A DNA stretch of 50,012 nucleotides from Raillietiella orientalis (GCA_036172245.1 JAYWIR010000116.1:62001-112012); one strand, 5' to 3'; shown: positions 803 through 49,600, counted from the first letter of the stretch. Numbers and translations: made by a program. Notes: generated from the sequence alone by a model not told the origin.

Positions 803-1140
803 TTGCCACTCGAATATGCCGGGGCATTTATTATTCTAATTTTCTACAAAAATTAGATGATAAAGTCTTCCAAAAGTTAATTGTGGGAAACACTTGGTTT
901 TCCCACCTTGGTTGACGTGTCTGTTGCCGGTGCATAGACCGGTTAAATCCATTCCCGAGGCACATGGGAAGGAAAAACTAGAACAAAAACAAAAAAAAGA
1001 GAGTTAACGGGGAGGGAAATAGTTGTATGGGGAGAGGGGGGGGGCAGGGAAGGGATCACTGGGCGCCTGGGTCGGTCCTCCGAATCCTGTTAAGGATGCA
1101 GTCAAGTTCTGCTTTAACTGTGAAAGGTAGACGTCACCTG
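803..1140 (-). mobile_element. Severely 5'-truncated LINE copy (last ORF2 codons plus 3'UTR)
   Basis: Near-identical to 1151-1488; ends in the AATAAA-hairpin terminus at 803-832. Confidence 0.85.
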
Positions 1141-1150
1141 CGTCCGCCGT

Positions 1151-2425
1151 TTGCCACCCGGATATGCCGGGGCATTTATTATTCTAATTTTCTACAAAAA
1201 TTAGATAATAAAGTTTTTCAAAAGTTAATTGTGGGAAACACTTGGTTTTCCCACCTTGGTTGACGTGTCGGTTGCCGGTGCATAGACCGGTTAGGTCCAT
1301 TCCCGAGGCGCATGGGAAGGAAAAACCAGAACAAAAACAAAAAAAAGAGAGATAACGGGGAGGGAAACAGTTGTATGGGGAGAGGGGGGGGGCAGGGAAG
1401 GGATCACTGAGCGCCTGGGTCGGTCCTCCGCATCCTGTTCAGGATGCAGTCAAGTTCTGTTTTAACTCTGAAAGGTAGACGCCACCTTGTCGCCGTCTCT
1501 AAAGAGATCGTCGTTTAGTGGATGGCGTCCCTGCATCTTGGGCCTCTTCTTCTGGCGTGCCACCTTGGCACAATGCCGCGCACGCAGCACAGGACTGCTA
1601 GAGACGCGGCGGGGCGCAGGCCGTCACGCAGAAAGAGGCGACGGTAAATTTCCTTAGGGTCGCCTACTGGAAGGTGGAGGATTGGGGCGATTCGACTCCA
1701 GAGTCCATCCAGGGCGACACACTCGAGGGTGAGATGCGGGAAGGTTTCTCTTTCTCCGCACTCGACACAGCGGGCATCCACATTTCCGAGTGTCCAGTGA
1801 GACAGGCGTGCTCTGCTTAACAGTCCCCAGTGCAGAAATAGCAACGCCGTCTCCTGCCACTTCAACGGAAGTGTGCCGCAATCCCAACACGCTGGGGGCC
1901 ACTTCACCTCCTCCGGAGGTATTGCGATCAGCTCTCCCCAGCGCGCAAGTCCGTGAGGCGGGACGCTCGGGGTGGCAGCGTCCGTGAGCTCATGAGTCGT
2001 CCACGCCTTTAAAGGTTTTTTCCTGCCTCGGATGAGTCAGGACACTTCCCACGATGCCAGCTCGTTGCTGCTCCTACTGTTTTTCAGGGAGGACAGGCCG
2101 GGGGCAAGGAAGCTGAAAGAAGCCCACAGAAACTTCCGGGGCGTGTTGATAATCTCCTGCAGCGGCTCTCGAGCGTACGGTCCTCGTCGTAGGCAGTTGT
2201 ATTCCGCCTCGCTCGTTCCGTTGATCTTAGCCCACGCGGAAGCTGACTCCTGAAGCCAGGCAGTGCAGTTCGCGGGGATGCAGGAGATCCAGGTATTCTC
2301 CCTCATCAGGGCGACCATCTGGCGCAAATCGGGACCACAGTTGGAGAGGCTGCGCTGGTAGGCCACGAGGATCGAGGACAATCCTTCGCAGCCGGTCGCT
2401 CTTCTGGCGAGGAGCCGTGCCGGAT
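1151..2425 (-). mobile_element. 5'-truncated LINE copy (ORF2 C-terminus plus 3'UTR)
   Basis: ORF 1515..1907(-) contains CVECGERETFPHLTLEC (C-terminal Cys/His motif); terminus motif at 1151-1180; flanked by the TSD. Confidence 0.9.
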
Positions 2426-3457: not shown

Positions 3458-6323
3458 TTCCTGTTCACGCTCTCTTCTTTCGATCCTCCTGGATCTAGCG
3501 GAGCGTGCAACTTCTGTAACCCCCAAACAGGAACCTTCGTTCCTGTTGGAGCATGACGAACTGTCCCCACGTTCGAACGGTTTCCTGCAACCAGGCACTA
3601 CCGTTCAACGGGCGACAGGTTAGCAATCCTGGTTTTTTCCGATACAGCGCAGCCACCCTCCGTGGCTGGAGTCCGCATCGGTTGACGCGGCGAGGGAGTG
3701 CAAGAAACGACGTCAGTCCCGTCTTGCCGGTAACTTGCTGGAGAAGGAGACGTGCAGGGATGCACCAACAGGTGCACCACAACTCTGGAACGAATGCCGA
3801 CAAGCGGAACTGGAGCTGAAGCTCCAGCCGCTCCAGCGTCAGGAGGCCCAGACCACCATCCCGACGAGGAGGGCGCAAGTCCTTTAAGCGGAATCGGGCC
3901 CTCCCGTTGCCCCAAAGGGCGATACGGAGGAGGTCCTTTGTCCGCTTTTTATTTCTCTCTGTGAAGGGGGCAAACAAATAGCAGGGGGCGGAGGAGAGGA
4001 GCCGCGAACCTGTTCCAAACAGCGGCCCGTTCAGGCAGGAAACACCTGCCGACTCGGAACGGGCCGATCGCCGTCTCTACTTTTTGGAGGCAGCCGGACC
4101 ACGCTTCCGCAGGGGAGTAGTCACCCAACGGCACACCAAGGTACTTGAAGTACCTCACCGTGGGGATCCCCAAACGGACCTAGTCCTGCTGCCCTGCCCA
4201 CGCCGCACGAACTGGTATCGCGGACGATTTCGCCCTGTTCACCGAAAGTCCGGTTCCCCGATGCAGCAGGTCGAAGAACTCCTCGACCGCCACAGCCGGG
4301 GTGGACATAGGGAGCAGCAGAAGAAGGTCGTTCGCGTATGCTGAAACCGCAGGCGTACCGGGACAATCGCACGCCACGTGCGCCAGAGTCTGCCTGTACG
4401 CTCTCAGTACCAACTCAAAGTAGGTACTGAAGAGCAAGGGGTTCAGGCTGTCTCCCTGCCGGATCCCACGCCGCACCGGCACGCCGTGCACGGTCTGCCC
4501 GCAGAAAGTAGCGTTGATGATCGCGTCGGGCCAGCAGGAGCGCGGATAGGCTACTAATGAGGCTGGGAAGCCCAAGCGTTCCAAAAGCTCCAGAAGGAGT
4601 TTCTGGTCGACGCAAACGATTGCTTTCCGCAAGTCGATTGCGACCGCAAGGGCTCCCTCCCCCACCCGACCATCCAACCCCTTGCCGGCGTACGCACCGG
4701 AATTCCGGCAGCGCAACAAGCTCCTTCCATTTTGGTGCTCTATCCAGGTGGAAGCGTGGAACAGGTTCGCCTCCATGCTTCCCCGGAAACAGCATATGTC
4801 TGTTCCGGTCTGATGAAGATGTTCAAAACCCGTCCCAGACGCTCTGCCCAAATCTTTGCTAGCAACTTGGCGTCCGCATTCACTATTGTGATGGGACGTC
4901 AGTTGTTCATGCTCCTCAGATCTCCTCCCTTAGGGAGGAGCTGTACCTTTGCCGAACGACACAAGGCGGGAACGTCACCTGTTTCGCGTATCAGCAAGGT
5001 GAGTTGCTGTACCAGGGGGGTAAGCTCAGCCGTGAAAGTTTGATAAAACTCCACGGGCAGGCCGTCCTCTTCTGGAGTCTTTCGCCTCTTGAGCTCTCCG
5101 ATGGCCGAGAGGATCTCGTCCATCGTGAAAGGCTCGTCGAGGGTCTTTCTCTGCTCCTCCCCGATCGCTGGACAGCGTTCCGGAAGCAGGAGACGTGATA
5201 CGTTCCTCTCCGCAGGTGCCCTGGCATACAGGGAGGAGTAGTAACTCCGCAGCAGGCCGCGGATTTGGGCAGTTGCCGAGTGCTCCAGGCCCTGTTCGTC
5301 CAGTAAGCTGGCCGATCCGGACTGCCAGGCTTGCCTCTCGGCTCCCGCTTTGTACTCTGGCAGCCTGCGGATGTCGGGGGTCCTGGCGCAACGACGGGCC
5401 TGCAGGTAGGCTCGTCCGTTACGGACCCCGGTCCCGAAACCCGTAGGTAGGCGGTGCAGAGGGAACCGGTCGCAGAACTCCTGGACCGACCGCTTGAAGC
5501 GGTCTCAATCCTGGAGTGTCCGCAGCCTGAAGCTCCGTATGAACGTGCGAAGATGTTTTTCTTTCTCGTTTGGGAGCTTCAGTTAGTCCCCTGGGAGACG
5601 TCACGCTGACGAGGGGGGGCCCCTGTTGCGCGGATGGATCTCGAGGACTAGCGGGCGATGGTCGGACAGCTCGCACGGTAACTTGCCGCGCCTGCCCACG
5701 CGAGGGCACGGGTGCTCCTCAGGAAACACGTGGTCAATGCTGTCTTCCATACCCGGTGCACTGGCCAACAAATTACAGGTGTGCACCGCCATGCACACCT
5801 CGTTGACCAGGTCACGCTCGGGATTCTGCTCATCTGGTTTCAGGCGAACGTTGAAATCGCCTGCAACCAGATGGCCATCCCGCACGCCTGCTTCGGTCAG
5901 CCAGTCTCGCCGGAGGGCAAGGAAAAACTCTTTCCTCGCCCTTCTGGTCATCAGGTCCGCGCCGCTCGGTGCGTACACGTTCGTGACGATCAGAGTGATC
6001 GAGTCGGACCACCTGAGAGTCAGCTGGCGGACACGACCGGGATCGTCGAACCGCACGCCCCGAGCCGCGGCCTCGACGGCTGGCCGAAGCTGGTAGGCGA
6101 CACCGCAACTTTTCGCTCTCCCACACCTGTACCATAGCCGCCCTCCGGAGATCCGTTCGATCTTTTGCGCTTGTTCTGCAGAGATCACGTGGATCTCCTG
6201 CAGCAGCGCAAGGTCGTAGGACTCCCGCAGGGCGGCCATGTCTCGTCTCCTGCCGGCGTCTGTCATGCCGTTCACGTTCCAAACGGCGATGCGCAGACGA
6301 CGGCGGAAGGAGATTCTCTACAT
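3458..6323 (-). pseudogene. Element G ORF2 (APE endonuclease plus RT), disrupted
   Basis: LLQEIH, NVYAP, AGDFN, IDH, SDH (5601..6275); GIRQGDSLNPLLF and YAND (mutated YADD) in 4180..4851; several stops and frameshifts. Confidence 0.9.
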
Positions 6324-7948
6324 TACTGCTGGAAGATTAAGGTGTGAGGGAGCCCTCCTCTTGCGAGGCGGACAGGATGTCCATGGGGATTTCGGCCTTC
6401 TCAGGCACCTGAGGCACCTGTACGGACTCTACCCCCTCCATCCCCTCCGTGTCCGCGCTTGGGAGTCTCTCGGGCGACGGGTCCCGAGAGCTTCCCACGC
6501 TCATGGCAACCTCGCTTGCGGAAGCTATCTCTTCCCCTTCGACGGGGGAGACGAGCTTCCTTGGCTTTGTGGACTTACGTCCAGCCTTCTTGCGCGGTGC
6601 CGTGGAAACAGAGGCTGCGCTTCCGGCCTCCACCTCGGGGTCGGAAGTGGGGGACTCCTGAGGGGAGGCCGGACGCCTTACGGCCTTCTTCCCAGCCTTG
6701 GAGGGTTCTGGCTGCAACGACGCTGCCAGCTCCTCCGCGGCTCGCGCGAATGCTACGTCATCGATGGTGGTGTCGATGACGGACGCCGCCGATGGCTCGC
6801 TCCCCTCGCTGTTGAAGGAGACAACAGAGATGTTGTCGTGGGTAGCAGCGAGTTCTTTTTCGCAGCGGTCGGGAATACGCTCGACGACAACGCTGCAATC
6901 TATAATTTGCTCGCTTGCCTGCTGTTTTTTCTGGCGGTACGCGAGCTATTTCTCCATCCACCTCTGCTTCTTTGATTTTTTGGCCGTAGCCACCTGTTAC
7001 CTAGGCTGCTGGCTTGTTCCCTCGACTTGTTTGGCGTTGTTCGTCGGGGTCTCGGGTGAGGCCTGGGCCTTGGGCGGGGGTGGCACAGCCTTCGCGGCAG
7101 CTTTCGCCGCCAGCCTTTTCTGCAGAAGCCGGGCACGTTTTTTGAGGTTTCTCTTAGAAACCACCCGCACTGCTGCTTTGGGGCACACCTCCCTTGTGTG
7201 TCCCATGGTTCCGCATACTTGGCACTGCACATTGGGACACCTCTTTTTGAGGTGTCCCGACGTATTGCAGAGGCCACAGTATTTCGGCTTCGCCACATAC
7301 CAGAGGTCGACGGTTTCGCCTTCGACCACCAGATTGTGGGGAAGAGTGCAGCCCTCCCGAACGATCACGCGCGCAGCAGTGATGCCGTGTTGCAGCCCCG
7401 TGGAGTCCTCGAAAGTACTTACTTTCGTCCACTGCGCGTGGACCGTTCCGAACTGTTCCAAAGCGGCGTCAACCTGTTCCTTGCGCATTCGCGCGGTTAC
7501 GTCTAATAGGTGCACCATGCTGCGGTCCGTTGTAGTGAGGAGGAGTTTGCGCGTTCCCATCACAACGGGGGTTTCATGCAGTCGTTGAGTTAGCTCTGCA
7601 TGTTTGCAGATGACCTCAACGTACTGACCCCCGCTGCGGATGGTCATAGCGCTGAGCTCCTCCTTTTTCACATCCAGAGCGCGCATGCCATTCGAGAAGG
7701 AGCGCGCGCTCTCTAAAGAATATAAATTGCCTACCTTGTAGAACAATGAGGGGTTGTACCCCTCCTCTACATAGGCCGACAATTCCCCCGAGGCTGCAGG
7801 CGATGGCGCCGCTCCACGCTCGCGCTGCAGCGGGACCGATTCTGTGGGGGCGGATGCCCCAACCTCCATCCCCTCTTGGGGCGACGTTGCCGCCACCCCC
7901 TGACTCTCTATCGTTTCTGGGGGTGGCGTTGTTGCTGCCCCTTGGCAT
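6323..7948 (-). pseudogene. Element G ORF1 (gag-like, two CCHC knuckles), disrupted
   Basis: CGLCNTSGHLKKRC and CQVCGTMGHTREVC in ORF 6997..7896; tail continues in broken frames to 6323. Confidence 0.88.
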
Positions 7949-8064
7949 CCCTGGTGGTCGCGTCAGGCATCGCTACCTGATCGACCACCGAACCACACGA
8001 CGCTTGCACTGGGGGAGACTTCCTGGCACGATGAGCACCGAGAAAACACGTCCACCCTGGAGCA

Positions 8065-10176
8065 AACAAAGCATTCGACTCCGTCGACCAGGATCTTCTT
8101 CTGGAGATCATGGAATGCATGGGTTTCCCTGCCGTGCTTCAATCTTACCTGCGCTCCTGCTGGCGCAACGCGTCAATCAATATCGGTTTCAGCGGCCGGC
8201 ACGTGTAAGGCGTGCCAGTGCGCCGCGGCATCCGGCAGGGTGACAGCCTGAGCCCCTTGCTCTTCAGCATCTACTTCGAGTTGGTGCTGAGGGCATACAG
8301 GGTAACTCTGGCAACCCTGCCGAGCTCGTGTGCCGGCACGCCTGCCGTGTCGGCCTATGCAGACGATCTTCTGCTGCTGCTTCCCGGGTCCACCCCGGCG
8401 AGTGCGCTCGAGGACTTCTTCGAGTTACTGCGCCGCGGGACGGGCCTGGAGGTGAACATGGCGAACACGTCCATGGTCTTTGTCGGTTGGGCGTGGGCTG
8501 GAAGGTCGGACTGAATCCGCTTGGGGATTTCCACGGGCAGGTGCTTCAAAAACCTTGGCGTTCCGTTGGGGGACTTCTGCGCAGCAGAAGCCTGGTCCGA
8601 CCGTCTTGAAAAGGCAGCGTTGGCGATCGGTCCGTTCCAAGAAAACAAGTTCTACTTGCAGGAACGGGCCCCGGCGTGGAACGCGTTTGCGGCCCTCCTC
8701 CTTCGCCCCCTACTTTTCGTTTGTTCCGCATCTTATTTTATTCGAAAACGAGCAACGGGCCTTCTGAGGACAGTCCTTTAGGGAAAAGGGAGGTCCCGTG
8801 TGAGGCTCGAAGACCTGTGCGCTCCACGTAAGGACGGTGGACTTGGCGTACTTACGCTAGAGCGCATGGAACTCCAACTACAATTCAGGTCTCTCGTTCT
8901 CGCGGCCGAATTGTGGAACACGCCTTGGTGCGTTCCAGCACGCCTCCTGGCCCAACGAGACTGCGGATTCGGTGGACTTTTGTCGTTTCTGCTGGCGCGC
9001 GACTGCAGAGAAGCACACGGCGGCTTTCTCTTGCGTCGTCTGGACGTTGTGATACGGAAGAATGCCTGGATTCCCTGCCTCCCAGGGAACCACTCGGCAT
9101 GACTGCACGAGTCAGTCTCCTCCTGGGAAAAGACCTACGTATTGGCGGTCACAAGGAGCACTTGCCTGAAAAGGCATGCCCGCTGAGCGCTGCAGGAGAT
9201 CGTGCAGTCTCACGACAAGCTTCTGTGGGCCTTGATAGCCTCCTCTCCCCAGTGCTGCCCTTCCTTGGGAATGCCAGGGACATTAGCGAGCAGGGGAAAT
9301 GGACCGTGTCCTGCACCATATGCGGCAGGACACAATCGATAAAGGCGTGGACATCTCGGCAGCTAGCTAACGCTGCGACGTCGAGTGTCCCGCCCAACAG
9401 AATTGGACGCTGGGGCGAGCTACTCAGAATATCTTCGGAGGAGATGAAGTGGCCTTCAGCGTCCTGGAACAGTGCATCCCTTTCCCTCAAATGGCAGGAG
9501 GTGGCGTTGCTTGTAATGCATTGGGGTTACCCTGTAAAGCACGCCTGTATCACACAACCCGGGGGGCTGTGGTTCCCCAGTGCGACCGGTGCAAGGAAAA
9601 AGAGACCTTCCCTCACCTTCTCATTGTGTGCAGAGCCATCCGCCTTTTATGGGATCGCCTTACGGCGATCCTGGACTTGCGCGGATGCGGCCCCAAGGAC
9701 GTTTTCAGGCGCCTCTTCTGTAGTGACGCCTTGTCCCCACTCGCTTCTGCAGCAATTCTCTGCTGCATTCGAGGGATCGTGGCGGCATGGAACGCCACCA
9801 GAAGAAGACGTCAGCCAACTGGCAGCGCCTTACGATGGACTCGCCTATTCGTGCGAGCTGTATGCAAGTGGCGCTACTTAGGCGCACAGAGGACACAGCT
9901 TGTCCAGATCCTTAATAGGATCCAGAGGACCTCTCCGGGCGCATAGTGATCCCTTGCCTGCCCTCCCATCCCTAAAACTTTTATCCCCTCCCGTGTTTAA
10001 ACTTTTTGTTTCTTTTGTTTTTTCTGTCCCAATTCCCGCGAATCGAAAGGACCTCTCCGTCCTAGCGTCGGCAACCAGCAAGCTGTTTTGGCGTGGTGCG
10101 CCTTCGGGTTCTCCACTGCAAAAATTAATGTATTTTGATTTTTCGAAATAAATGCCCCGGCATATCCGGGTGAAAA
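8065..10176 (+). mobile_element. Element H: 3' half of a LINE (RT motif A to 3' terminus)
   Basis: Starts at KAFDSVDQ; GIRQGDSLSPLLF and YADD (8212..8514); CDRCKEKETFPHLLIVC (9449..9946); AATAAATGCCCCGGCATATCCGGGTGAAAA at 10147-10176. Confidence 0.9.
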
Positions 10177-11521
10177 CGACTGTCGGTGCGGAAAGCGAGG
10201 AGGCGGCGCGAATCGAAGACGCGACCTTCGAGCAGGCCGCGGAAGAGCTGGCAGCCATGTAACGGCAGCCTGTCAAGGCGGTAAAGAAGGCCTTCAGACG
10301 ACCGACAACGGCGAAGGTTCCGGAAAATTCCGAGTCCGAAACCGAAGCCGGATGCTCTTCTTCCGCAGCCGTGCCGAAGAGAAAGGCTGGCAAGAAGACC
10401 GGTTGCCTGAGACGGGTCGCCCCTCCGCAGCTGGGGAGCCCATGTCCTTGGGCACGGAGGAGGAGGCAATGTGCGTCGCACCACGCGACCCTTCTCCCTT
10501 CTGCGTCTCGGAAGCCAGCCCGATGGAAATCGCTGTCCACGACAAGCTCCCGTGTGAGCAGCCGACCGTCGTCACGGTCACCAACGAGCCGCCTCCCGCA
10601 AGGGAGGTGGCCGCCTCCACCCCACAATAAACACACCGATGGGTGGGCTCGAATCATTCCGACGCCTGCGCGTCACCTGTTGGAATGTCAACGGATTGCA
10701 CGACGACGGTAAGAGGCGAGACGTAGCCGCCATACTTCGAGACTTCGACCTGGTGCTCCTGCAAGAGATGCACGTTCTCAAAGCAGAAGAAGTCCAGGAA
10801 ATCGAAAGAATCGCAGGAAGGTGGCTACTGTGGAGGAACGGAAACGACCGCTCCTGCGAAGTTGCCTTTTAGCTTAAGCCAGCCGTCGAAAATACACTGC
10901 GCAGCGTGTGGTTCGACCAGGACGGTCGAGTAGGGCAGCTTGTTTTCAAGTGGTCTGACTCGATCGACTTCATAGTCACGAACCTGTACGCTCCGGTGTG
11001 CAACCACAGGGCCGACGAACGCACTGCGTTCCTCGAATCCCTGCGGCGAGACTGGTTGGCTGAAGCAAGCGTACGACGGGCGCACCTCATTGCGGGCGAC
11101 TTCAATCTCCGCGTGCTGGCAGGTGCGCCGTGCACACGAGCACGACTGGTCAACGAGTTGTGTTCAGCCATCAATGCGCGCAACTTGTTGGCGGGTGATG
11201 CCGGGAGAGATCGGAACATCGATCACATGTTTCACGACAACCCCCTGTGAACGCGGGTGGGCACTCGAGGAACGCTGCCGGCACAGCTGTCCGAACATCC
11301 ACGGCTCGTGCTCGAGATACATCCACGCGACAAGGGCCCTTTAATGAAAACGTGGCGCCTGCCGGGGGACTGGTTGCGCCTCGCAGGAGCGGCGGAACAT
11401 CTGCGCGCATTCCTGTGAGGATTCCATCTTGAGACGCTCGCGGACTAGGACGAAATAAAGTGCTTACTCCGCGAGTTTTGCGACCAGTTTCCCCTGGAAC
11501 GTCTTCCGCCGAGCTTCGGCG
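10177..11521 (+). pseudogene. Element I: LINE fragment (ORF1 tail plus endonuclease), interrupted by J
   Basis: DATFEQAAEELAA motif; WNVNGL...LLQEMH (10639..10872); NLYAP, AGDFN, IDH (10906..11250); ends at FPLERLPPSFG. Confidence 0.88.
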
Positions 11522-14500: not shown

Positions 14501-14535
14501 TTAAAAAAGTCCTAGTCCTGGAGATTCCGGAGCGT
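11522..14535 (-). mobile_element. Element J: 3' ~3 kb of a LINE (ORF2 linker, RT, C-terminus, 3'UTR), interrupted by A/A'; close relative of F
   Basis: Terminus motif at 11522-11552; WRPITIVNTD, DLHKAFD and YGDD in broken frames; strongly similar to 46615-49631. Confidence 0.9.
14519..14535. repeat. 17-bp TSD of element A (TGGAGATTCCGGAGCGT; second copy TGGAGATTCCAAAGCGT at 20070-20086)
   Basis: 15/17 match; the sequence is host J-family ORF2 (compare the uninterrupted site around 49617-49632). Confidence 0.85.
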
Positions 14536-14553
14536 CGAGCGGACGTGTCTTTT
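14536..14553 (+). promoter_or_regulatory. Conserved 5'-terminal motif (GYGGACGTGTTTT-like), probable internal promoter element; present at all seven intact 5' ends
   Basis: Seen at G, A, A', B, C, E and D within ~15 nt of the 5' junction; function inferred. Confidence 0.6.
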
Positions 14554-14617
14554 CGTTGCTCCTGAGTTCCATTTCCGTTGGTGCTTGTGCGTGGTGTGGG
14601 TGGAGGATTAGGCAGAA

Positions 14618-20069: not shown

Positions 20070-20086
20070 TGGAGATTCCAAAGCGT

Positions 20087-34250: not shown

Positions 34251-34353
34251 CGGACACCAACGATGTGAAAAAGCACACACTGAACCAAAAAAAAAACCGC
34301 TTTCCGCTGCTCGTTCGCATAGCGCCGGAAAAACACGTCCGCTCTCGAGGAGA

Positions 34354-37900: not shown

Positions 37901-38273
37901 CGGACCGAGGCCTTTGAAAGGTCCCAATCATTGAGAATGCGGAGGGTGACGCCTCTCAGGAATTCGCGAAGGCGTTCCTTCGCACCTGAGAGTCGCGTCC
38001 AGTCTCCAGGCAGACGCCACGCCCTGGATGGGGGGCCCTTGTTACGAGGCCGCATCTCGAAAATTAACCGGGAATGGTCCTACAACGTCGACGCAACCCT
38101 CCCCCGTTTGCCGACCCGTGAACACAGGTCAGCGTCGAGGAAGACGTGGTCGATGCTGCGGACCATTCCCCTCTCACCCGCGAACAAGCTGCCTGCACGC
38201 ATGGCGGCGCACATCTAGTTCATCGCGTTCACTTGTGTTTCCGGCTCACCTGTTAGCAGGCGGAGATTGAAAT
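34938..38273 (-). mobile_element. Element D 3' part (ORF2 from mid-endonuclease to 3' terminus), disrupted
   Basis: Terminus motif at 34938-34967; KAPGEDG, WRPIT, DLHKAFD, YADD and KYLG in broken frames. Confidence 0.9.
38265..38273. repeat. 9-bp perfect TSD of element E (GATTGAAAT; second copy at 44160-44168)
   Basis: Exact match; lies in the host GDFN codons; uninterrupted equivalent at 49950-49958. Confidence 0.92.
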
Positions 38274-38586
38274 TTATCACCCGGTCACGCCGGAACGTTT
38301 ATTAATAATAATAAACTGGTCAGGGACAATGTCCCCAACCAAGAGAACGACAGAGAACCTAGAAAAATTACCGGCACGCAGGCCTGGTAAACAAACCGCT
38401 CACAGCGTAAGGGGAATGAGGGGAAACAAACAGAAATCAAAACCTGGAGGGAAGGGTAACGGGTTTTTGGTGAGGCTCCGTACTCACGGGGATTTATACG
38501 ATGAGCACCTAAAATGTTCCGGAGCCTATGTGGACGCGGGTGTAAAAAGAAAATACAAATTTAGTTTATGGAGGGTAGGGCAATGA

Positions 38587-41500
38587 TCACCGGGTTGGCC
38601 GCTGATGAGGGTGTGTAAACCGGCGGTGTATTGCGGCGAGATTCCTCTTTGTCTCCTCTGTCAAATGAGGCCATCTAGCGGATGCTACCATGTAGAAGGA
38701 TGCTTTGCTGATTACCTCTTGGTGCTGTCCGTTGATTACCAACGCCTGGCGGACGGAAACTATCGCGCGTATGCAACCGATGGTTGCAATCCTTGCGCTT
38801 AGTGAAAGCCCGCTCGGCGTGAAGAATCGTGGCAGCAAGTCTCTTGCGGTGTCCACGGGATGCAATAGTGCTGTTGCCAGCCTACGCCACAGTCCTTGCA
38901 GGACACCGCAGTCCAGAAGTAGGTGCGGAATCGACTCCGTCGATCCGCACCGAACACAGTTCGCAGACGCAAGTCCCCCGGAGTCACGATGCCAACGCTC
39001 GTTGCACTGAAAACCCCAGTGAACGAAAAGCAGCACGGCTTGTTTCCAAGCAAGGGGGAGCAGCGAACTGTCAATACACTGTGGAGGGACTACAAGTTCT
39101 TCTGCCCACCGGAGCAGTCCCTTTGCAGTAACACGAGGAGTGGCGGCGTCCGCCAACTCACTTGTCTTCCAGGTGCCAAGGAGTTTGGTTCTTCCCGCTA
39201 TCGTGCAGGAAACCTCCCACCTCGCCGGTTGGTAACTGTCGTTTCTTGCCCTGAGAGCAGACAGCGCTGCGGCAAGAGGCGTGGCAGCCAGGGTAGAAAA
39301 CTTCACCTCGTCCTGCAGTACTTCTTCCAAGAATCGTGGAAAAAATTGGCGCAGGGGGCGAAGATCTTCAGGGCGTATTCCTTGGAACGCCGCCCAGGAT
39401 TCAACAGACTCCTGCTGCCAAGCTTCAAAGTTCATTGGGCGGCAGGAGATCCAAGAGTGTGCTTCCAGAAGTGCGGTCAACTGCCGCAATGGAAAACCGA
39501 AACCCCGCTTCCTGTATTCAGTGCTCGGCAAAAGCGAGAGAAATCCTCCGCTGCCGGCGCATCTCCGCAGAAGAATGCGAGCTGGCACACACAGGGGGGA
39601 TGTCCATAGCTGGGCACACAGTGCCAGCAGTCGGAACTGAACCTGCAGTCCGATTCGCACTATTGTCAGGATACCCAAACCAGCATCCCGACGCGGAGCT
39701 GACAAATCTTTAAGGCGGATCCTGGATCTCGCCGGACCCCAGAGAGCGTTCCTGAGCAGGCGCTTAGCCCGCTGTTTTGCCGCATAGGGGGGGTCCAAAA
39801 CAAAAAACAGGGGACGGAGGAGGGGGGCCACAAAGGTGTACCAAATAGTCGCCCGTTCCTGCAAGGTAATCTTGCCGTTAAAGAACGGGCTGATGGCCAA
39901 CTCTGCTTTCTGAAGACAGTTCGCCCACGCTTCGGCTGCGCCGAAAGCGCCCAACGGAACGCCAAGGTACTTAAAGTACCCGCCGGTGGGGATCCCCAGG
40001 CGGATCCAGTCGGACTGCCCCTCCCACGACGTACCCACAGCAACGACCACGCTCTTCTCTCTGTTCACGCTCACGCCCGCTCCCCGACGAATCAGGTCGA
40101 AGAAATCCTCCACACTGGACGCCGGGGTGGACATGGGGAGCAGAAGAAGCAGGTCATCAGCGTAGGCGGCCACGGCAGGCGTTCCCGGGCAGGAGCTTGG
40201 CAAGTGAGACAGCGTCAGCCTGTATGCACTTAGCACCAACTCAAAGAAGATGCTAAAGAGCAACGGGCTTAAGCTGTCGCCCTGTCGGATGCCCCTACGA
40301 ACGGGAATACCATACACGCTGCAGCCGCTAAAAGTGATGCAGGTTAGCGCGTGGCGCCAGCACGCGCGCAAATACAGCAGGAGTTGCGCCGGGAACCCAA
40401 GGCGTTCCATAAGCTCCAAAAGCAGCTTCTGGTTTACGCAGTCGAACGCCTTGTGGAGATCGACCGCGACCGCCAAGGCACCTGGCGTTCCCTCCTGCCG
40501 TCGGCGCCTGTTCTTTTTGCCTGCGGCAGTGACTTTCGCAGCAGCCTGACTTCGCTGCGCCACAACTTCCTGCAGCTGCATCCATGTACGCGCGAAAAGG
40601 ATGTTCGCCTCCATGGATCGCCCCGGAACCGCGTAGGTTTGTTCCGGGCTCACCACAGATTCCGCGATTCTTCCTAACCGCGCGATTTACAGCTTGGAAA
40701 ACAACTTGACGTCCGAGTTCACCAAGGTGATCGGACGCCAGCTGCTAAGTTGGCGCAAGTCTCTGTCTTTCGGCAGGAGACGCACCTTCGCTGAGCGGAA
40801 GGAATCAGGGACATTCCCGGATTCACTCATCAGCGTCGCGAGGTTCAGCATCAAGGGAATGAGCTCCACTGCAAAGCACTGATAAAACTCTGCAGGGAGC
40901 CCATCCTCGCCTGGCGCCTTTCGTCTCTTCAGCCCAGCGATGGCGGACGAAAATTCATCCGCCGTGAAGGGCTCGTCGAGACGTTCGCGTTCCTCCTTGC
41001 CGACAACACGAGCATCCTGAGACAGGAGTATCTCAGAAAGAATATCCTCCGTCGGGGATTCCGCGTAGAGCGAGGAGTAGTAGCGTCTCACAATGCTGCG
41101 TACTTCGGCTGGGGCCGAACATTCCCGGCCCCTGTCGTCCAACAGGCATGCTGCTCCGGACTGCCAGACCTGGCGCTCGGCCCTCGCCTTGTACTCTGCG
41201 AGACGCCCGACATCGGCGCGTCTTGAAAACGTGCGGGCCTGCAGAAAGTCTCTACTGTTGGCCACACCCTCTCCGAAACCGCGTGGAAGCCGGTGCAAGG
41301 GGAATTGGCAGCAGAACTCGCGGACAGATCTTTTGAGATCGTCCCAGTCCGCAAGTTCTTAAATGGCAAAGCCTCGGAGGTATCCACGTAGAACCTCCGC
41401 AGCCTCCGGTTGGCAAAGCGAATCCGCCTGCATCCTCCAGTTTTGCAACGGAGGCCCCCTGCCTGGCGGAAAGATCTCAAACTCCAACCTGTGGTGGTCA

Positions 41501-42159
41501 GAAAGCCTAGTCAACAATCTTCCTCTCCTACCCACACGCGAATGCAGGTTTTCATCGAGGAAAACGTGATCGAGCGATCTTTCCATTCCAGGTTCGCTGA
41601 CCATCAAGTTGGCGGCGTGCACGGACGCGCACATCTCGATGGGTAGCGCGCGTTCCCTCGGCCGGCTCCAATCGTCGGAGAGCAGGCGGACGTTGAGGTC
41701 CCCAGCGACGAGGTGCGCCACTTGGAAACCGGAGTTGTTGAGCCAGTGGCTCTGCACCTCACCAAAGAAAGCTACTCTTTCTTCGAGGTAGCGAGAGCCA
41801 CTCGGCGCGTAGACGTTCGTAACGACGAGATCGATGGACTCGGACCACTTGATGACAAGCTGGCCTATCCCTCCGTCGTCATCGAAACGAACACTACGCA
41901 CCGCTTCCGCCATTTTTCCTCTTACGAGGAACGCGACGCCGCACGTGTGTGCGCCGCCGCACCGCCAATGTAGCGTTCCGCCTGCGCGCTCCTCGATTTC
42001 GGCTGCGTGCTCGTCGGAGATTACGTTAATCTCCTGCAGCAGCACGAGGTCGAAGGGGCGCAGGGCGTTGGCTACTAATCGCCTCTTCTCGTCGTTCTGT
42101 AGTCCGTTCACGTTCCAACACGTTACGGACAGACGACGAGAAGACGCGATTCCCCGCAT
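38587..42159 (-). pseudogene. Element E ORF2 (1190 codons, single frame, two premature TAA stops)
   Basis: ORFs 41359..42159, 40687..41298 and 38587..40656 are in one frame; all EN and RT motifs present plus CVRCGSTESIPHLLLDC. Confidence 0.93.
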
Positions 42160-44081
42160 TACTGCTGGGAAGGTGGCGGCTTTTTACTCGCTTTATCCGG
42201 CGAGCAGAAGGCGAGCAGCACGACTGGCTGGAGGGGACGGTCGCCACCGTCTTTTGTCGTGCTGCATGCATGTACTGCCTCCACGTCAGGCTTAACCCTG
42301 TCGGGTTTCGTGAAGATTTCGCGTGACTTCGCGGCAAGCGTTGCCTGGCTGCCTACTATTAATCGGTGCGCACACGCTTTCGAACGAGTTGTCCTCGTCT
42401 CGGTGATCGGAACGGCATCCATTTCGGAGTCCGACCGGCGCATGTTCGATCGAGTTTCGGCCTTCCGCGAAGTAGTGACAGGTTCTGCTGGATTGACAGC
42501 TGTCCTGTTGTCTTTTTCCGTCTCCAGAGCATCGCTTTTGGTGACGGCTGCTTTCCCGGCGCGCGCGTTTTCAGCGTGCTCACGCGCAGTTGCGCGAGGG
42601 ACCTTTGCTGAAGTCTTCTTTACTTCATTACGGTTCCTCACTTCGTGTGGCGCCGTAAATGGAGATTGTGTTCCATTGCCATCTTTGAAGCCGTCCGCGT
42701 CTTTGGACGGGAGCACTTTCGATGGCTCCGACACGCTCGTCATGGATGCTGCCTTCGGAAGGGCTTTTAATCCCTTCGTTGGCATGGCATCCGCGCCAGT
42801 CGAGAGCTTGCTCTCCGACTGCGACGGCGTGAGAGTTTTCTCCGCTTTCCCGGTGTTGGGTCGCGACGCGGATTTTTTTTTGCCGACTTTCGAAGTCGAC
42901 ACGGCACAACCCTTCTTACCCGATTTGGGCTTCTCAGCCACTGCAGGAAGTGAAGGAATGGATCTGACGGTACTGGAAGTCTCCTTACCGTTGTTGTCCA
43001 TTGTCGTCCCCGCCGGTTGCTCGAACTCCGAAAGAGCCGGGCGTGCTTGGGAAGGACACCTATTGCGCCTAGGGGGACTTAGCATTGCCCCGGATTCCCC
43101 GCACCCTTTCTTTTGCGGCTCCCCTGCCGCGAGAAAGGACGCGCAGGGCTTCGCGTGCGAGGTTTCCTGCTGCTTTGGGGCGACATTCCGCCTCGCGTTT
43201 TTTCGGAATTTCTGCCGTGGGGTCTCCAGGTTTTTCGCAGATTTTTTCTTTTTATCCGCGCTTTGTTTTCTAAGATGGAGCTCCGCGGCTGCCTTTTTTC
43301 GCAAAAGATCCGGGCAATTTTTCAATTGGTGCGCGGATAGTTTGCAATAACGGCATTTTCCAGAGGGGCATTTATCCAAACAATGCCCCTCCTTCCCGCA
43401 TTGCTCGCACGTTTTTACTTTGCCCACGAACCACAGGTGAACGACCGTGTCTTTCACCTGTAGTTGGGTGGGCAGCAGACGGCGGTCCGGCATTGTAAGC
43501 CGGACTCCAGCGACTCCGCTGTGTATGGACGGGAAGTCCTTGAGGTTGCTACGCACCCTCCACAGCGCATGGACCGTGGCGAATTTCGCCAACGCGTTCC
43601 GAATATCAGTATCGGAGACTTCCGACTCCATGTCGAAAATCTCCGCCACAAATGAGTCGTCCATGGCGGCCGGGAAGACCTTCTGGCCACGGATCGACAA
43701 CGGGGTGCGCAGCAAGCGTTGCACAAGTGCAGCGTCTTTGCAACGCACCTTGAAATAGCCCATGTCTTTTACGGGCATAATGGCGAGAAGGTCCTCCTCC
43801 CGCACGCCAACACGGGTCAGTTCATCGTTGAACTGATTCCCGTCGCGCGCAGAAAGAAACCCACTCACCTTATATCGGAGAGCAGGTCTATAGCCTTCGG
43901 CTACGTATGCCCGCAACTCCGACTCGTCGAGTGGCTTCCCTTTGACGGCTGCTGTGGCAGCAACGTCAGCAAAACTCCTCTCTTTTGGCGAGAATCACGA
44001 AGTGGAGGCGACCGTCGGTTCCGCGATTGCAGATCCATATGCTGTTCCTCCAACTTGAGTAGCTTCAAGTTGGGTCGACAT
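42159..44081 (-). pseudogene. Element E ORF1 (two CCHC knuckles); 585-aa open frame, likely ATG at 44081 separated by an early stop
   Basis: CEQCGKEGHCLDKC and CRYCKLSAHQLKNC in 42159..43916; the in-frame ATG at 44081 is followed by TGA near 43995. Confidence 0.82.
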
Positions 44082-44159
44082 CGTCGTCAAAATGTACGAC
44101 GCCAAGATGAAGCGGATGAAAGCACGGAGACGAGAGCGAAGAAAAACACGTCCGCACTC

Positions 44160-46596
44160 GATTGAAATCTCCCGCTATCAGGTGAGCCTTTCGCACATTG
44201 GTATTCGCCAGCCCGGTCCGTTTCAGGGTTTTTAGCAGCCTGGTGCGGTCGCGGTACCCCTGTTTGCCGCTGGGGCCATAAACGTTTGTGACGATTAGGT
44301 CGATCGAGTCGGACCATCTGAGAATCAGCTGACCGATCCGACCGTCGTCATCCAACGGCACGCCCTTCACGGCAGCGTCGATGGCCGGCTTTACGAACAA
44401 CGCGACTCCGCGGGTGTTGCGGAGCCCGCATCGCCAATACAACCGACACCCCGCGATTGCCTCGATCTCCTGGGCGTCTGCCGCGGTGATCACGTGGATC
44501 TCCTGCAGCAGCGCCAGGTCGAGCTCACGCAGAGTGTCGGCCGTATCTCGCCTGTTGCCGTCGTCGCGCAGCCCGTTGACGTTCCAACAGGCCGCGCGAA
44601 TCCGACGGCGACTGGCGAGCCCAGGTGTTAGTCCTGGGAAAACGACGATGCGGCGTCCGCCACCTGCTGGGGCGAAACGCTAGGTGGAGGGGGAGGGGGG
44701 ACAGGTACTGAAGACACCTGTTCCTCCTCCTCCATCGGTGTTGGCGCGTCGGCCCGATCACCCGCAGGTGGAGTCGCGCCTACCTGTTCGCCTTCCTCCA
44801 TGGGTTCGGGCTGCTCAGGTTTTGCGACTGCAGAAGGACTTCACTTCCCTGCTCACCCTCTTCCATGAGGGTGGCCGCCTCGACGGCTTCCAGGCGTGGG
44901 TATCCCCCCTTCGGGATTCCCACGCTGCCGTTTCCTTCCGGTTTCTCCTCCTCGCTGGTGGAGGAGAGGCGCCTCCTGGGTTCCTAAGACTTGCGTCCCG
45001 ACTTCCTGGGGGTGCCTCCGAGGAGGAGGATCCGCTTCCGGCCCCCAGCTCGCACTCACCTGCGGGGGCCTTCTTCGTCGGAGCCGAACTGCGTACGCCC
45101 TTGCGCGGCGGGTTTTCGCGCTCGGCGTGCGTTGCTACGTGCTCCTTTGCCGCATTCTCGAAGGCCTCGCCTTCCACAGCGGGGATTGTTGCCGGGGGCT
45201 GTTCCGCGACCTTATCGAGCGCGGAGTCATCGCTGACGGCGAACGTTGCCGCGGGCTCCTACGCGACTTTATCGAGCGCGGCGTCCTGGCTGTCGGCGCG
45301 CGAGTCTCGCGTCTCACCCTCTACACGTAGATTGGGCTCGTCCACGCGAGTATTCATCGCGTCCGCATCAGCTGTTCCGCGAACATTGCCGCGGGCGGAC
45401 TCGGCAGGAACGGCTTAGCGTTCCACTGCCACCGAGCATTCCCGGAGTTGTTTTTTTTTTTGAAAGAGGCGTGGCTTTTTTCTTGTTGCCGGCAGTTTTC
45501 TTCTCCGACTTTTCTTCTGGCATTAATTTCTTTTTTTTTTCTTTTCTGGCCTGAACCAGCTGCCAACCCTTCTCAATTTCCGCGTTCACAAGAGCTCTTT
45601 CCTCCGACGACTGTACGGGAGGAAGGGAGGCTGGCAGTTGGGAACGGCCATTTTCGCGAGCTGGTCTTTCCACCAGCTTTCCACGTTTTCCCTGCGCCTT
45701 TTTGGCGGCAAGGGGCACCGGGGTGGGGCGCTTGGGGCACACCCGCCGAACGTGACCCTTTTCGCCGCATAGGTGGCACACAATGTTCGGGCACCTTTTT
45801 CGTAGATGCCCTACTGCATTGCAGTAGCCACAAAATTGGCGTTTCCTTACGTACCAGAGGTCCACCTCTTCTTGGCAGACCTCCAGCTTGTGGGAAAGCG
45901 CACCACTCTCTTTTAATGTGATATGCGCCGCAGCTTGACCTCCGAAAAGGCTATTGTAGCCTTGGAAAATCGTAGACTTCGGCCACAACGCGTGCACTTC
46001 TGCGTGCTTTTGTAGCTGTTCTCGAACCGCTGACCTAGTCATGCGACTGGAGATCCCAGTGAGATGGACCACCACCGAGCGGTCCATCGTTATCGGCAAG
46101 ATCTTCCGACCATCAACAATCAGCGGGTCGGTGATCAGGTGTCGGGCCAAGGTGATATCCTTCCATACCACCTCGACCCGCTGCCCGCCGCTGAGGACGA
46201 AGAGGCCGTCGCAATCTTTTTGAAAATATTGGCCTTCTGCAGCGCCTTCGTAAAGGCGCGTGCAGTTTGCCCATCGAAAAGGTTGCCTACCTTGTAGCCT
46301 AGCGAGGGTTTATACCCCGCTTTCTTGTAGGCTTCCATCTCGGCCATGGCTTCCACGCTAGGCGCGGCCACCATGGCGCTCCATGAACTCGGAGTCGCCG
46401 GGGACGATTCCAAGACGGATGCCCCTGATCCAGTAGGCTGTGGGGCGAACAAGCCCCCATCACGCCTACTTCCATCGCGGTGTCCTCTGGCAACGCTGCC
46501 ATCGGACACCGACGATGTGCACGCACAAATCACTCAACAAAAAAAAACACTCGCTTCGCCACGCAGGCGGAGCGCAGGAAAAGAACGTCCGCTCTC
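44160..46596 (-). mobile_element. Element D 5' part (5'UTR, disrupted ORF1 44628-46502, first half of endonuclease)
   Basis: 5' motif GAGCGGACGTTCTTTT at 46579-46594; CGYCNAVGHLRKRC and CHLCGEKGHVRRVC in 45368..46171; NVYGP...AGDFN in 44065..44493. Confidence 0.9.
45131..45301. repeat. Three degenerate 57-bp tandem units inside D ORF1
   Basis: Units start GTTGC at 45131, 45188 and 45245; they encode variants of the DAAFxxAAEELAAT helix. Confidence 0.7.
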
Positions 46597-46614
46597 CACA
46601 GAAGGAATTCGGCG

Positions 46615-49600
46615 TTGCCACCCGGGTACGCCCGGGGCGTTTATTTATAAAAAACTCTACAATTGCGGTACCAGGCCCCGCTCACGGCCTTATGCACGGG
46701 ACCTACCGGGAGGCCGGGACGCAGCCCGGCGTGGCACTCCCCGGCAGCGAAAGGGGATGGGGAAAAACAAAAATAAAAACAAAAAGGCAAACAAACAAGT
46801 GAGGTTGGGGGGCAGGCATGGGATCACTGTTCGCAGAGAGGAGGGCCCATCCGTTGAAGGAAGCCCTTGAGGTCCATCCGTATATTCCCCAGTTGGGGCC
46901 ATCCAGCAGCTCTCCGCAAGAAGCGTTGGGCATATGGGATTACATCCCTCGCGTGTTGACCCACTCCTTCCTTATTTGTGTCGCTCCATGCCGCCACGAT
47001 GCCTCGGACGCAGCACAAGGCTGCAAGGGCTGCGGCTAGCTGCAGGGCGTCCTTCACGAAGAAGGGCCGAAGTACGTTTCTAAAGGAACTGCCCGTAGGG
47101 AGATGGAGGATCGTCTTAACCGTTCCCAAAGGGGACGAAGGGAAGCACAGTCCACAATAAGGTGGGAGAGCGATTCCCGCTCTTCGCACCTGACACACCC
47201 AGGATCCACAACTCCTCTTGTCCAGTGAGAGCGGCGTGCGTTGCAGGGTAAACGCCAATGCAACAACAGCAACGCCGACTCTTTCCACTTAAGGGGCAGG
47301 ATCCTGGATTCCTGAAGAAGCGGGGGCCACTTCAGCACATCCATAGGGATGGCCAGCAGCTCGCCCCATCTTCTTAGTCCTCGCGGCTGGACGCTCGGGG
47401 TCGTCACGTCGGCCAGTTCTCCTGTTGTCCAGACGCTGATCAACTTCTCGCGTCCCTCGATGCAGCAGGAGACTTGCCACCTTGGCGTCCGGCTGCTGTG
47501 AAGTGCCCTCCTTAGGAAGGGCAGCGCCGTAGCTAGGCAGGCGTCTCTGCCCACGTGCATCTTGCTGGAATCTCCAGGAGATTCCGCAGCGTGCAGCGGG
47601 CGTGAAGGCTGCATCGGAGACGATTCCACGTCTCGTGGCTTCTCTGGTTAACTAATGCCCACGTTTCAATATTCTCCTCCAGCCAGTCGGGGTAGCTGGC
47701 GGGGCAGCAAACCATCCAGCTGTACTCCTTGGCCAATGTTGCCATCCGCCCGAGCAGTAGGCCGCATCTTCGCATCTTCCGGACACGGCTGAGGAGAAAA
47801 GACGCCAGTCCATCGCACCGGGACATACGGCTGGCCAGGAGGCGGGCTGGAGTGCACCATGGGGTGCACCACATGTTCGCTGCGATGGCGACGGTTCGCC
47901 ACCGCAGCTGCTTCTCCACGCGCTCCAGCGTCAGGAGGCCAAGACCGCCTTCCCGACGCGGAGCGCACAAGTCCTTCAGTGGGACTCGGGGCCTCCCCTT
48001 GCCCCAAAGGGCGATACGGAGGAGGTCCTTCGTCCTCTTCTTAGATTCCACGGTGGGAAGGCAAACAAAAAGCAAGGGGCGGAGGACGGGGGCCGCGAAG
48101 GCGTTCCAAACCGCAGCCCGTTCCCGCAAGTGAAACTTGCCTTCCAGGAACGGGCAGATCGCCGTCTCGACTTTTTGGAGGCAGCTCGACCACGCTTCCT
48201 CAGGGGACTAGTCCCCCAACGGCACACCAAAGTACTTGAAGCACCTCGCCGTGGGCATCCTCAGACGGACCCAGTCCTGCTGCCCTGCCCACGCCGCACC
48301 TATTGGCACAACCGACGACTACGCCCTGTTAACCTGCAGTCCGGTCCCGCGGTTGAGCAGATCGAAGAAGTCTCCTACCGCCTTTGCCGGGGTGGACATT
48401 GGCAACAAAAGCAGAAGATCGTCGACGTACGCTGCTACGGCGGGCGTGCCGGGGCACGAGCTCGGCAATGGGGCCAAAGTCACCCTGTACGCTCCTAGCA
48501 CCAACTCAAAGTAGGTGCTGAAGAGCAGGGGGCTGAGGCTCTCTCCCTGCTTTATGCTCCGTCGCACCGGCACCTTATACACCTTTTGACCGCTGAAAGA
48601 GACGGTAATTATTGCATTCCACCAGCAAGAGCGCAGGTTGGAAATCATGGAGGGTGGAAAGCCCATGCGACCCAGGAGCTCCAAGAGAAGTTCCTGCTCT
48701 ACACAGTCGAACGCCTTGTGGAGATCGACTGCGAGCGCAAGGGCCCCCTACCCCGCCCGGGGTTCCCTTCCCAGCCAGCCTGGCGGCCCCAATGTGGAGT
48801 TGCCGACTTTCCTAATCCCTTTCTTTTCTCTTCTCTGCAGGTGCACCTTTGTGCTTGCGAACAAGAGGTTGGCATCCATACTTCGCCCGGGAACAGCCTA
48901 AGTCTGCTCCGGGCTAAATACGGATTCTGCCACCTGCCCCAGACGTGAAGCCCATAGCCCTGCGATCAACTTGGCGTCCCTATTCACGATCGTGATCGGA
49001 CGCCAGTTATTTAAATCCCTGAGGTCTCCCCCTTTCGGAAGGAGCCTCACTCTGGCTGACCGAAACGAGGCGGGAACATCGCCTTCGTCTCAGATCAGCC
49101 TTGTCAGCTGAAGCAGCAGGGGTGCCAGCTCTTCCGCGAAGCTCTGAAAGAACTCCGCGGGCAAGCCGTCTCCCCCTGGAGCTTTACGCCTCTTGAGCCT
49201 TTTGATACCGGCGAGAATTTCGCCGGTGGCAAAAAGCTCGTCGAGGCTTTCGATCTCCTCCGCCCCTATTGCCGGGGCGCCATCCGGAAGCAAGCGTCGA
49301 GAGGCGTCTCGATCCGGGGGCTCCCTGGCGTAAAGGGAGGAATAGAAACTGCGCACGAGATGCCGTACCGACGCCGCGGACGAACACTCCCGGCCCTGGT
49401 CGTCCAGCAAGCTGGCCGACCCGGATTGCCAAGCTTGGCGTTCGGCCCCGGCGCGGTACTCGGCCAGGCGACGGACATTAGGGGTTCTTTCGTACCTACG
49501 AGCCTGTAAATAGGCCCGATGGTTGTGAGCACCCTTGTCGAATCCGGGGGGCAGGCGATCCAGTGGGAACTTCTCACAGAACTCGCGGACCGATTCCTTA

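Follow-up and report, generated by a model that had tools for sequence, protein, structure and literature searches.

All ten long interspersed nuclear element (LINE) 3' untranslated regions (UTRs) in a 50,012-nucleotide stretch of the Raillietiella orientalis genome (GCA_036172245.1 JAYWIR010000116.1:62001-112012, the whole of which we call the window) end in the same short module and carry no tail. The module consists of AATAAA-YG, a CCCGG/CCGGG stem of 5-6 bp with a 4-5-nt loop, and then a hexamer, mostly TG-NN-AA. The elements have fixed, tail-less termini, a conserved terminal module, target-site duplications (TSDs), and a lack of complementarity between primer and template. On balance, we favor the reading that these LINEs are of the stringent type and belong to a deep L1/Tx1-like lineage not sampled before, and that their reverse transcriptase (RT) would start copying at a set register with no pairing to the target.

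The terminal module and its register

Searching the window for AATAAAYGYYCYGG with up to one mismatch allowed returned ten matches, all of them exact. Shuffled windows gave a mean of 0.11 matches and a maximum of two, and none of 100 shuffles reached ten. The terminal hexamer is TGGCAA in four copies (E1, E2, E8, and E10); the others have TGAAAA (E3), TGGCTA (E4), TTTCAA (E5), TGAGAA (E6), TGACAA (E7), or TGATAA (E9). Hexamer position 5 is A in nine of the ten, nine end in AA, and AATAAA is invariant (10/10). The hexamer's final A lies 30 nt from the start of AATAAA in seven copies; in the three with a 6-bp stem (E4, E7, and E10) the distance is 31 nt. Four copies (E1, E2, E6, and E9) are followed by one additional A that can be assigned to either the element or the target.

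None of the ten 3' ends examined has an A or T run of nine or more or a tandem repeat. Their A runs are two to four long, never more than four, and no end has a microsatellite (0/10). A scan for a second hairpin, farther upstream in the UTR, recovered the same copies (the hairpin of E3 is degenerate and visible only in the alignment) and found no LINE 3' UTR in the window that lacks the terminal module. Selection by the motif therefore hid no tailed copies in the window. A first-pass annotation of this DNA had described ten 3' ends of this form, a distance of 30-31 nt from AATAAA to the junction, and the absence of poly(A) or microsatellite tails, and all three descriptions hold.

The window and its elements

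The self-comparison and map show that the window is almost wholly LINE copies nested in one another. No non-LINE sequence was recognized in it, and neither a non-autonomous element nor a partner short interspersed nuclear element (SINE) was seen there. The G+C content is 59 per cent, with observed/expected ratios of 0.99 for CpG and 1.04 for GpC; these ratios give no indication that CpG has been lost through methylation.

Grouped by nucleotide identity, the copies sort into four families. Family A comprises E1, E2, and E3, family C comprises E6 and E9, and family D comprises E4, E7, E8, and E10. Family B comprises E5, its older neighbor E5', and two partial copies: H2, an internal fragment at 10178-11521, and one at ~3566-8046 that is truncated at its 3' end. 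E5, E6, E7, and E9 are full length (5.5-5.9 kb), and E8 is likewise full length but split by E9. Identity between copies is 65-94 per cent in the self-comparison, and no copy in the window has an intact second open reading frame (ORF2); the copies are evidently old and broken. When the DNA contigs of runs X1-X3 were compared with 19000-38999, many further diverged copies appeared in X1, where 441 of 740 contig pieces are less than 90 per cent alike. Of the sequence words sampled, 0.48 occur in a single DNA run, and no RNA run was among those listed as containing them. The elements and their 3' features are as follows.

803-832, minus strand: terminal module of E1 (family A), from AATAAA to TGGCAA, with a degenerate 3' arm; E1 is a 5'-truncated copy at 803-1139
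1151-1180, minus strand: terminal module of E2 (family A), then one extra A and a 10-bp flank, CGGCGGACGC (1140-1149), which is repeated after E1 (792-801)
10147-10176, plus strand: terminal module of E3 (family A), ending TGAAAA; the element runs from ~8047 to 10176
11522-11552, minus strand: terminal module of E4 (family D), ending TGGCTA; E4 covers 11522-14535 and E5 interrupts its 5' side
14536-20069, plus strand: E5, full-length family B; ORF1 at 14612-16276, and ORF2, with apurinic/apyrimidinic-type endonuclease (APE) and RT, from 16180
20040-20069, plus strand: terminal module of E5, ending TTTCAA; 17-bp TSD at 14519-14535 and 20070-20086
20087-21989, plus strand: first piece of E5', an older family B host, which resumes at 27939-28687 and 34359-34937 and is split by E6, E7, and E8
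21990-27938, minus strand: E6, full-length family C; module at 21990-22019, ending TGAGAA; 12-bp TSD at 21978-21989 and 27939-27950
28688-34358, minus strand: E7, full-length family D; module at 28688-28718, ending TGACAA; 6-bp TSD TTGGGG at 28682-28687 and 34359-34364
34938-38273, minus strand: 3' part of E8 (family D); module at 34938-34967, ending TGGCAA; 5' part at 44162-46607, with E9 between
38274-44161, minus strand: E9, full-length family C; module at 38274-38303, ending TGATAA; TSD TTGAAA(T) at 38267-38273 and 44162-44168
46615-50012, minus strand: E10 (family D), which runs off the window; module at 46615-46645, ending TGGCAA; seven bases (46608-46614) precede the 5' end of E8
46714-46729, minus strand: upstream 3' UTR hairpin (HP1), CCGGN-CTGCGY-NCCGG, as found in E10
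927-942, 1275-1290, 11621-11636, 19946-19961, 22117-22132, 28788-28803, 35034-35049, and 38371-38386: HP1 in other copies
46615-46620 with ~46735-46740 (E10) and 28688-28693 with ~28806-28811 (E7): candidate long-range pairing sites in family D

Full-length copies of all families also share a 5'-end motif, GAG(C/T)GCGGACGTGT(T)TTTYC, at a variable distance of 3-25 nt from the 5' end. It lies at 14536-14555 and 20087-20106, and on the minus strand at 27915-27938, 34330-34358, 44140-44161, 46575-46607, and ~8030-8046. This motif may be part of an internal promoter or of a 5' end signal.

Junctions with target DNA

Four ends are fixed by TSDs, namely those of E5 (17 bp), E6 (12 bp, with two mismatches), E7 (6 bp), and E9 (6-7 bp). 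E6, E7, and E9 each interrupt another LINE copy, which resumes beyond the insertion. For E5, the left copy of the TSD belongs to the host: E10, which is 90 per cent identical to E4, has the same 17 bases and continues after them as family D sequence, at the point where E4 switches to the 5' end of E5. E8 adjoins colinear host DNA on its 3' side only. The end of E4 is fixed by homology of its flank to the target site of E7, and the ends of E1 and E2 are fixed by their repeated 10-bp flank. These two copies lie within a 348-bp tandem unit (792-1487, 94 per cent identical) made up of the last 337 bp of a family A element and the flank. The first-pass annotation had stated that TSDs or host colinearity fix most of the junctions, in agreement with our count of four fixed by TSD and two or three more by colinearity. 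At the independently fixed junctions the element stops with the hexamer's final A; E6 and E9 may have one A more, of ambiguous origin.

Between the 3' end of E10 and the 5' end of E8 there are only seven bases (TTCGGCG on the plus strand, within 46604-46622). As the flank of E10 (CGCCGAA), they are identical to the flank of its 90 per cent identical relative E4 but unlike the 3' flank of E8.

Six of the ten junctions (E3, E4, E5, E7, E8, and E10) have C or T as the first base of the flank. The nicked target strand at these sites thus ends in G or A, and there is no pairing with the terminal A of the RNA. The remaining four junctions permit a single A:T pair.

Conservation and structure of the 3' UTR

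Between families, the last 31 nt are 0.78 identical (28 inter-family pairs). Identity falls to 0.45-0.50 in the UTR upstream (three 31-nt stretches and one 99-nt stretch, 28 pairs) and is 51-75 per cent in the RT-coding DNA of the four families, with a mean of 0.59. By this contrast, the terminal 31 nt are the most constrained nucleotide sequence of these elements. As in stringent LINEs, the 3' end is conserved far above the rest of the element across related families (28 inter-family pairs).

RNAalifold finds two consensus helices in the 3' UTR, one of them the terminal stem and the other HP1 (CCGGN-CUGCGY-NCCGG), which lies ~95-115 nt before the end. Pairing in HP1 is kept in 43 of 45 cells. 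The pair that closes its loop is of three kinds (UA in three, GC in two, and CG in two), and with one further double change, two of the five pairs have changed on both sides. The covariation score of HP1 exceeds those of all 500 shuffles and all slid controls. In the minimum-energy fold, each family also has a stable middle hairpin (HP2), whose sequence is unrelated between families. Further upstream, a T-rich tract and a GTGATCCCTTCC block are common to families A, B, and D. The first-pass annotation had taken the UTRs to be dissimilar apart from their ends, which is right only in part, because the second hairpin, the T-rich tract, and GTGATCCCTTCC are shared.

The terminal GUGRC of family D is able to pair with five bases immediately 5' of HP1, which would close the whole 3' domain. 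This long-range pair is GCCAC/GUGGC in E10 and GUCAC/GUGAC in E7, a single case of one compensatory difference, outside CpG. No Rfam family matches the window at gathering thresholds; Rfam contains a model for UnaL2. Two other kinds of 3' end were considered and rejected. A histone-mRNA-like stem-loop end is ruled out by the upstream AAUAAA and by the lack of sequence likeness to the histone consensus, and a Helitron-like 3' hairpin is ruled out by the TSDs and by ORFs with APE and RT.

Placement among LINEs

In E5 and E6, ORF2 encodes an N-terminal APE-type endonuclease (Exo_endo_phos, E 1.2e-11) followed by an RT (RVT_1, E 1e-20), the arrangement expected of L1/Tx1 elements. A CCHC knuckle is present in two ORF1s. 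Human L1 ORF2p is the best match to the RT among solved structures, at 153 bits (E 6e-44), compared with 54 bits for R2Bm. Proteins with zf-RVT score 1e-33, and Tad-like proteins with PF14529 score E 1e-9 to 1e-4. Among 1.84 billion representatives there is just one close relative, a metagenome fragment of 619 aa at 72 per cent identity, and the next best is at 33 per cent. The nearest named proteins are from a turtle, the alga Closterium, and fishes, and other neighbors come from a newt, amphioxus, and coral; APE, RT, and zf-RVT occur together in thirteen of nineteen scanned neighbors. No protein named L1 or Tx1 was among the word-index and cluster matches, and ESM Atlas gave only generic APE/RT clusters.

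The C-terminus of the family C ORF2 has the motif CX2CX7HX4C, which reads CLRCGEIESFPHLLLDC in E6 (22648-22698, minus strand) and CVRCGSTESIPHLLLDC in E9 (38908-38958, minus strand). Both fit the zf-RVT-type consensus of the relatives, CxxCxxxETxxHLFxxC. Pfam zf-RVT was found in none of three C-terminal window segments at E 0.01, and E5 and E7, whose C-termini are broken, show no motif of the CX2CX7HX4C type.

We placed the RTs in a quick maximum-likelihood tree of fifty-five RT domains. Its rows were hand-picked from the matches (the highest-scoring ones, some from named animals, and Tad-like proteins), and it excludes E10 and the B-like copy at 3566-8046, which have several stops or frameshifts. 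Five window RTs and the metagenome fragment form one clade with a stem length of 1.24 (Shimodaira-Hasegawa-like approximate likelihood ratio test, SH-aLRT, 100), which argues that the terminal module was inherited and retained. This clade lies inside the zf-RVT group, and that group is split from eight Tad-like outgroup rows (SH-aLRT 99). The tree holds no named L1 or Tx1 references, so the placement is L1/Tx1-like, a term that covers L1, Tx1, or a new clade. With this meaning, the window elements are one deep, unsampled branch among L1/Tx1-like LINEs. The L1/Tx1 assignment, which the first-pass annotation had also made, is reasonable because of the APE and RT, the best match to human L1 ORF2p (153 bits), the zf-RVT of the relatives (13/19), and the CX2CX7HX4C motif of family C. 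A poly(A) or simple-repeat tail is a usual, not a defining, feature of L1/Tx1 elements, and it is present at none of the ten ends.

Initiation of reverse transcription

The structured 3' UTR comprises HP1, the sequence-variable HP2, an AU-rich linker, and the terminal module, in that order. The module itself (AAUAAA-YG, the CCCGG/CCGGG hairpin, and UG-NN-AA) is almost invariant. In the mechanism we propose, the end of the RNA may be made by cleavage and polyadenylation at the terminus, and the ORF2 protein would bind the 3' end and position the template. Target-primed reverse transcription would then begin at a fixed position, 6 nt past the terminal stem, with the hairpin as a putative measuring element. 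Initiation would involve no base pairs between the RNA and the nicked target, and none, or at most one or two residues, of any poly(A) tail would be copied.

An AAUAAA 10-30 nt from the cleavage site is canonical, and cleavage prefers A. Judged from the DNA alone, the distance of AAUAAA from the end and the A at hexamer position 5 (9/10) are compatible with cleavage of the RNA after A. The A runs of only two to four and the unpairable primers at six of ten junctions argue against annealing of a T-rich primer to poly(A) and for initiation positioned by protein.

Several observations weigh against this mechanism. Pairing in the terminal stem is complete (45 of 45 cells), but none of its five pairs has changed on both sides; its substitutions are C-to-U only and yield G.U pairs. 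For a G+C-rich 30-mer of this composition its folding energy is ordinary: z lies between -0.05 and -1.57, and out of 200 shuffles, 15 to 94 fold as well. Given no compensatory change and ordinary stability, the sequence rather than the structure of the module may be what is recognized. The 3' UTR is a structured domain, with covariation in the upstream HP1 instead, and a role for the hairpin in defining the terminus is something we infer. The first-pass annotation had called the terminus 'hairpin-defined', which goes beyond the alignment. It had also proposed stringent, structure-registered priming. The fixed, tail-less, conserved ends and the six unpairable junctions agree with the stringent part of that proposal, but a terminal stem without covariation lends the structural part no support.

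Some of the ends also carry less weight than others. For E3 and E10, the end is set by nothing more than comparison with relatives in the same family. E1 and E2 may be one duplicated event, or one of them may be a second, 5'-truncated insertion into a regenerated target. The flank shared by E4 and E10 could reflect target preference, re-insertion, or a short 3' read-through from the source copy; if it was carried from the source copy, initiation would have taken place downstream of the supposed fixed point, which would be one exception. The evidence base is one 50-kb window of old, broken copies, and related DNA was not found elsewhere. A scan of metagenomes with AATAAAYGYYCCGGNNNNNCCSGG gave at least 118 loci, of which 0/118 were related by blastn/tblastx, and the matches listed look like chance or bacterial terminator-like hairpins. 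Protein-guided scans of genome contigs and viral contigs found no relative.

Priming could instead depend on poly(A), with very short copying. Under this explanation the RNA is cleaved ~24 nt past AAUAAA, the tail primes as in L1, and only one or two A are kept, so that the fixed end marks the cleavage site and not recognition of the hairpin by RT. The invariant AAUAAA (10/10) at a canonical distance from the end, the A at hexamer position 5, the final AA (each in nine of ten), and the variation of the A run from two to four fit it. We nevertheless consider it unlikely. Were the primer annealed to a tail, A runs should differ in length and often be long, and primers should end in T; no run exceeds four, and six of ten primers end in G or A. 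The position of eukaryotic RNA cleavage also depends on the downstream flanking sequence, which is different at every copy. A still smaller chance attaches to recombination, template switching, or gene conversion among the co-resident families, which would keep the termini alike in place of selection for recognition by RT. The hairpin variants do not strictly follow the ORF family (E8, with a family D ORF, has the CGTGA loop that is otherwise a family C feature). The families are also nested in one another, and the likeness of E4 to E10 extends to seven flanking bases. Exchange accounts for similarity but not for precise tail-less junctions or an invariant distance, and the adjacent UTR has not been homogenized (0.45-0.50 identity). 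A module that was repeatedly swapped and retained in all four families would still imply function.

It is very improbable that ordinary A-tails or microsatellites were once present and were lost by decay or deletion, even in copies as old as these (65-94 per cent identity between copies, none with an intact ORF2). E5, E6, E7, and E9 directly meet their TSDs, which leaves no space for a lost tail, E8 meets colinear host DNA, and removal of ten of ten tails to the same base is not credible. The palindromic GC motif might also act as DNA, in second-strand synthesis or as a landing mark for insertions, and not as an RNA hairpin read by RT. We see hardly any likelihood in this. The head-to-tail arrangements do adjoin 3' ends, and the CCCGG/CCGGG arms are invariant and do not covary. 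But a repeated target separates the head-to-tail copies (17 bp for E5/E5' and 10 bp for E2/E1), so each new copy used the regenerated target and not the hairpin of its neighbor, and four insertions lie far from any 3' end.

Insertion of families into one another

E4 and E7, which are 76 per cent identical to each other, sit at exactly homologous antisense positions of two family-B-like hosts. Since these hosts are only 63 per cent identical, E4 and E7 are independent insertions at one site of the family B ORF2. The nicked strands end in TTCGGCG for E4 (11515-11521) and TTTGGGG for E7 (28682-28687), and the flank of E10 is also TTCGGCG. The sites suggest a sequence-specific endonuclease aimed at the ORF2 of another LINE family.

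E5 and E5' are each preceded by the same 17-bp family D ORF2 sequence, giving the order target-E5-target-E5' (14519-20086). The host sequence before E5 is TGGAGATTCCGGAGCGT (part of E4, in the family D ORF2, antisense), and a second copy of it, with two mismatches, lies where E5 ends and E5' begins. The arrangement looks like that of a site-specific element inserting more than once into a regenerated target, and E2-target-E1-target is of the same form. Each of families B and D occupies a repeated site within the ORF2 of the other, and the families appear to insert site-specifically into each other, on the strength of two or three sites in one window. The reciprocal B/D insertion resembles the transposon-targeting of Tx1-clade elements (PMC4494074). 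If real, it would be a tidy case of transposons as mutual safe landing sites.

Fixed-register initiation and this targeting can be combined, and we offer the combination as a tentative possibility. The AAUAAA-hairpin module would serve as a ruler, with RT starting exactly at the cleavage/polyadenylation site and the tail discarded. The endonucleases of sister families would be aimed at fixed sites in each other's ORF2, and the regenerated target would be re-used for head-to-tail arrays, so that the families would together build, and inhabit, LINE-only islands. Were this true, stringent, R2-like initiation would have been retained in the L1 superclade, which would support ancestral stringent L1 recognition.

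Comparison with known LINEs

The choice of template and first base by a LINE RT is well worked out only for R2, UnaL2/ZfL2, SART1, and human L1, and ancestral stringency of the L1 superclade is an open proposal (PMC3472496). A deep L1/Tx1-like branch would add a useful data point and, provided that an intact copy exists, would make a simple test system. The value of the window elements lies in their invariant 31-nt terminus with no tail and no primer-template pairing. Our findings do not overturn current models.

Stringent recognition of a 3' hairpin is established for most LINE clades, is proposed for some L1-clade lineages, and has been proposed as ancestral in the L1 clade (PMC3472496). It is established in L2-clade elements (PMC4176376). 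According to Ohshima 2012, the 3' end of one monocot L1 lineage is conserved and forms a hairpin, L1-1_CR of Chlamydomonas shares its 3' end with a SINE, and L1 families without a 3' repeat occur in flowering plants (9 of 233) and in green algae (5 of 15; Repbase; Table 1, PMC3472496). Stringent L1-clade lineages and tail-less L1 families are thus already known from that source, the window elements fit a known kind, and the description 'atypical for this clade' in the first-pass annotation was too strong. The maize LINE1-1_ZM group ('monocot 1a') and L1-1_CR resemble the window elements in having an L1-clade ORF2 and a conserved terminal stretch. Divergence in those lineages is 0.144 in the last 45 nt and 0.570 overall, and in the window, identity is 0.78 at the terminus and 0.45-0.59 elsewhere. 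The stringent L1 lineages of that paper end in poly(A), whereas the window elements have no tail. Their conserved nucleotides (loop UCU, 3' flank CGAG) do not match the window motif, and the window has no partner SINE (PMC3472496).

UnaL2 and ZfL2 are of another clade, L2, and differ from the window elements, which have a single, non-repeated hexamer. UnaL2 and ZfL2 end in short tandem repeats that are used for slippage. Like the window elements as we reconstruct them, they have a short 3' hairpin near the terminus that is recognized by ORF2, and a 3' module sets the start (PMC4176376). R2 elements have a restriction-like endonuclease and a single ORF, whereas the window elements have an N-terminal APE and two ORFs. 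The 3' UTR of R2 is structured and bound by protein, no primer-template pairing is needed, junctions are precise and often tail-less, and insertion is site-specific. The likeness to the window elements is in the structured 3' UTR, its putative binding by protein, the precise junctions, initiation without primer-template pairing, and apparently site-specific insertion (PMC11194090).

Target-specific LINEs of the Tx1 clade resemble the window elements in their APE-RT and in inserting at set positions in other transposons (Kojima 2015, PMC4494074). The zf-RVT-type C-terminal motif among relatives of the window elements is a further likeness (PMC4494074). Tx1-Mar differs, in that the SINEs it mobilizes have poly(A) tails, implying use of the tail (PMC4494074). 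Human and other mammalian L1s share two ORFs, an APE endonuclease, and TSDs with the window elements, and provide the best solved match to their RT. Mammalian L1, of the relaxed type, needs and retains poly(A) and nicks T-rich sites (PMC5135761), whereas the window elements have no tail and their targets end mostly in G. Within the parts of the literature covered, a search whose scope did not extend to the Tx1L 3' end or supplementary family lists, neither this motif nor a tail-less, hairpin-ended L1/Tx1 family beyond the tabulation in PMC3472496 is described. What is unusual here is the combination of an L1/Tx1-like RT, an invariant AAUAAA-registered module, and the complete absence of a tail.

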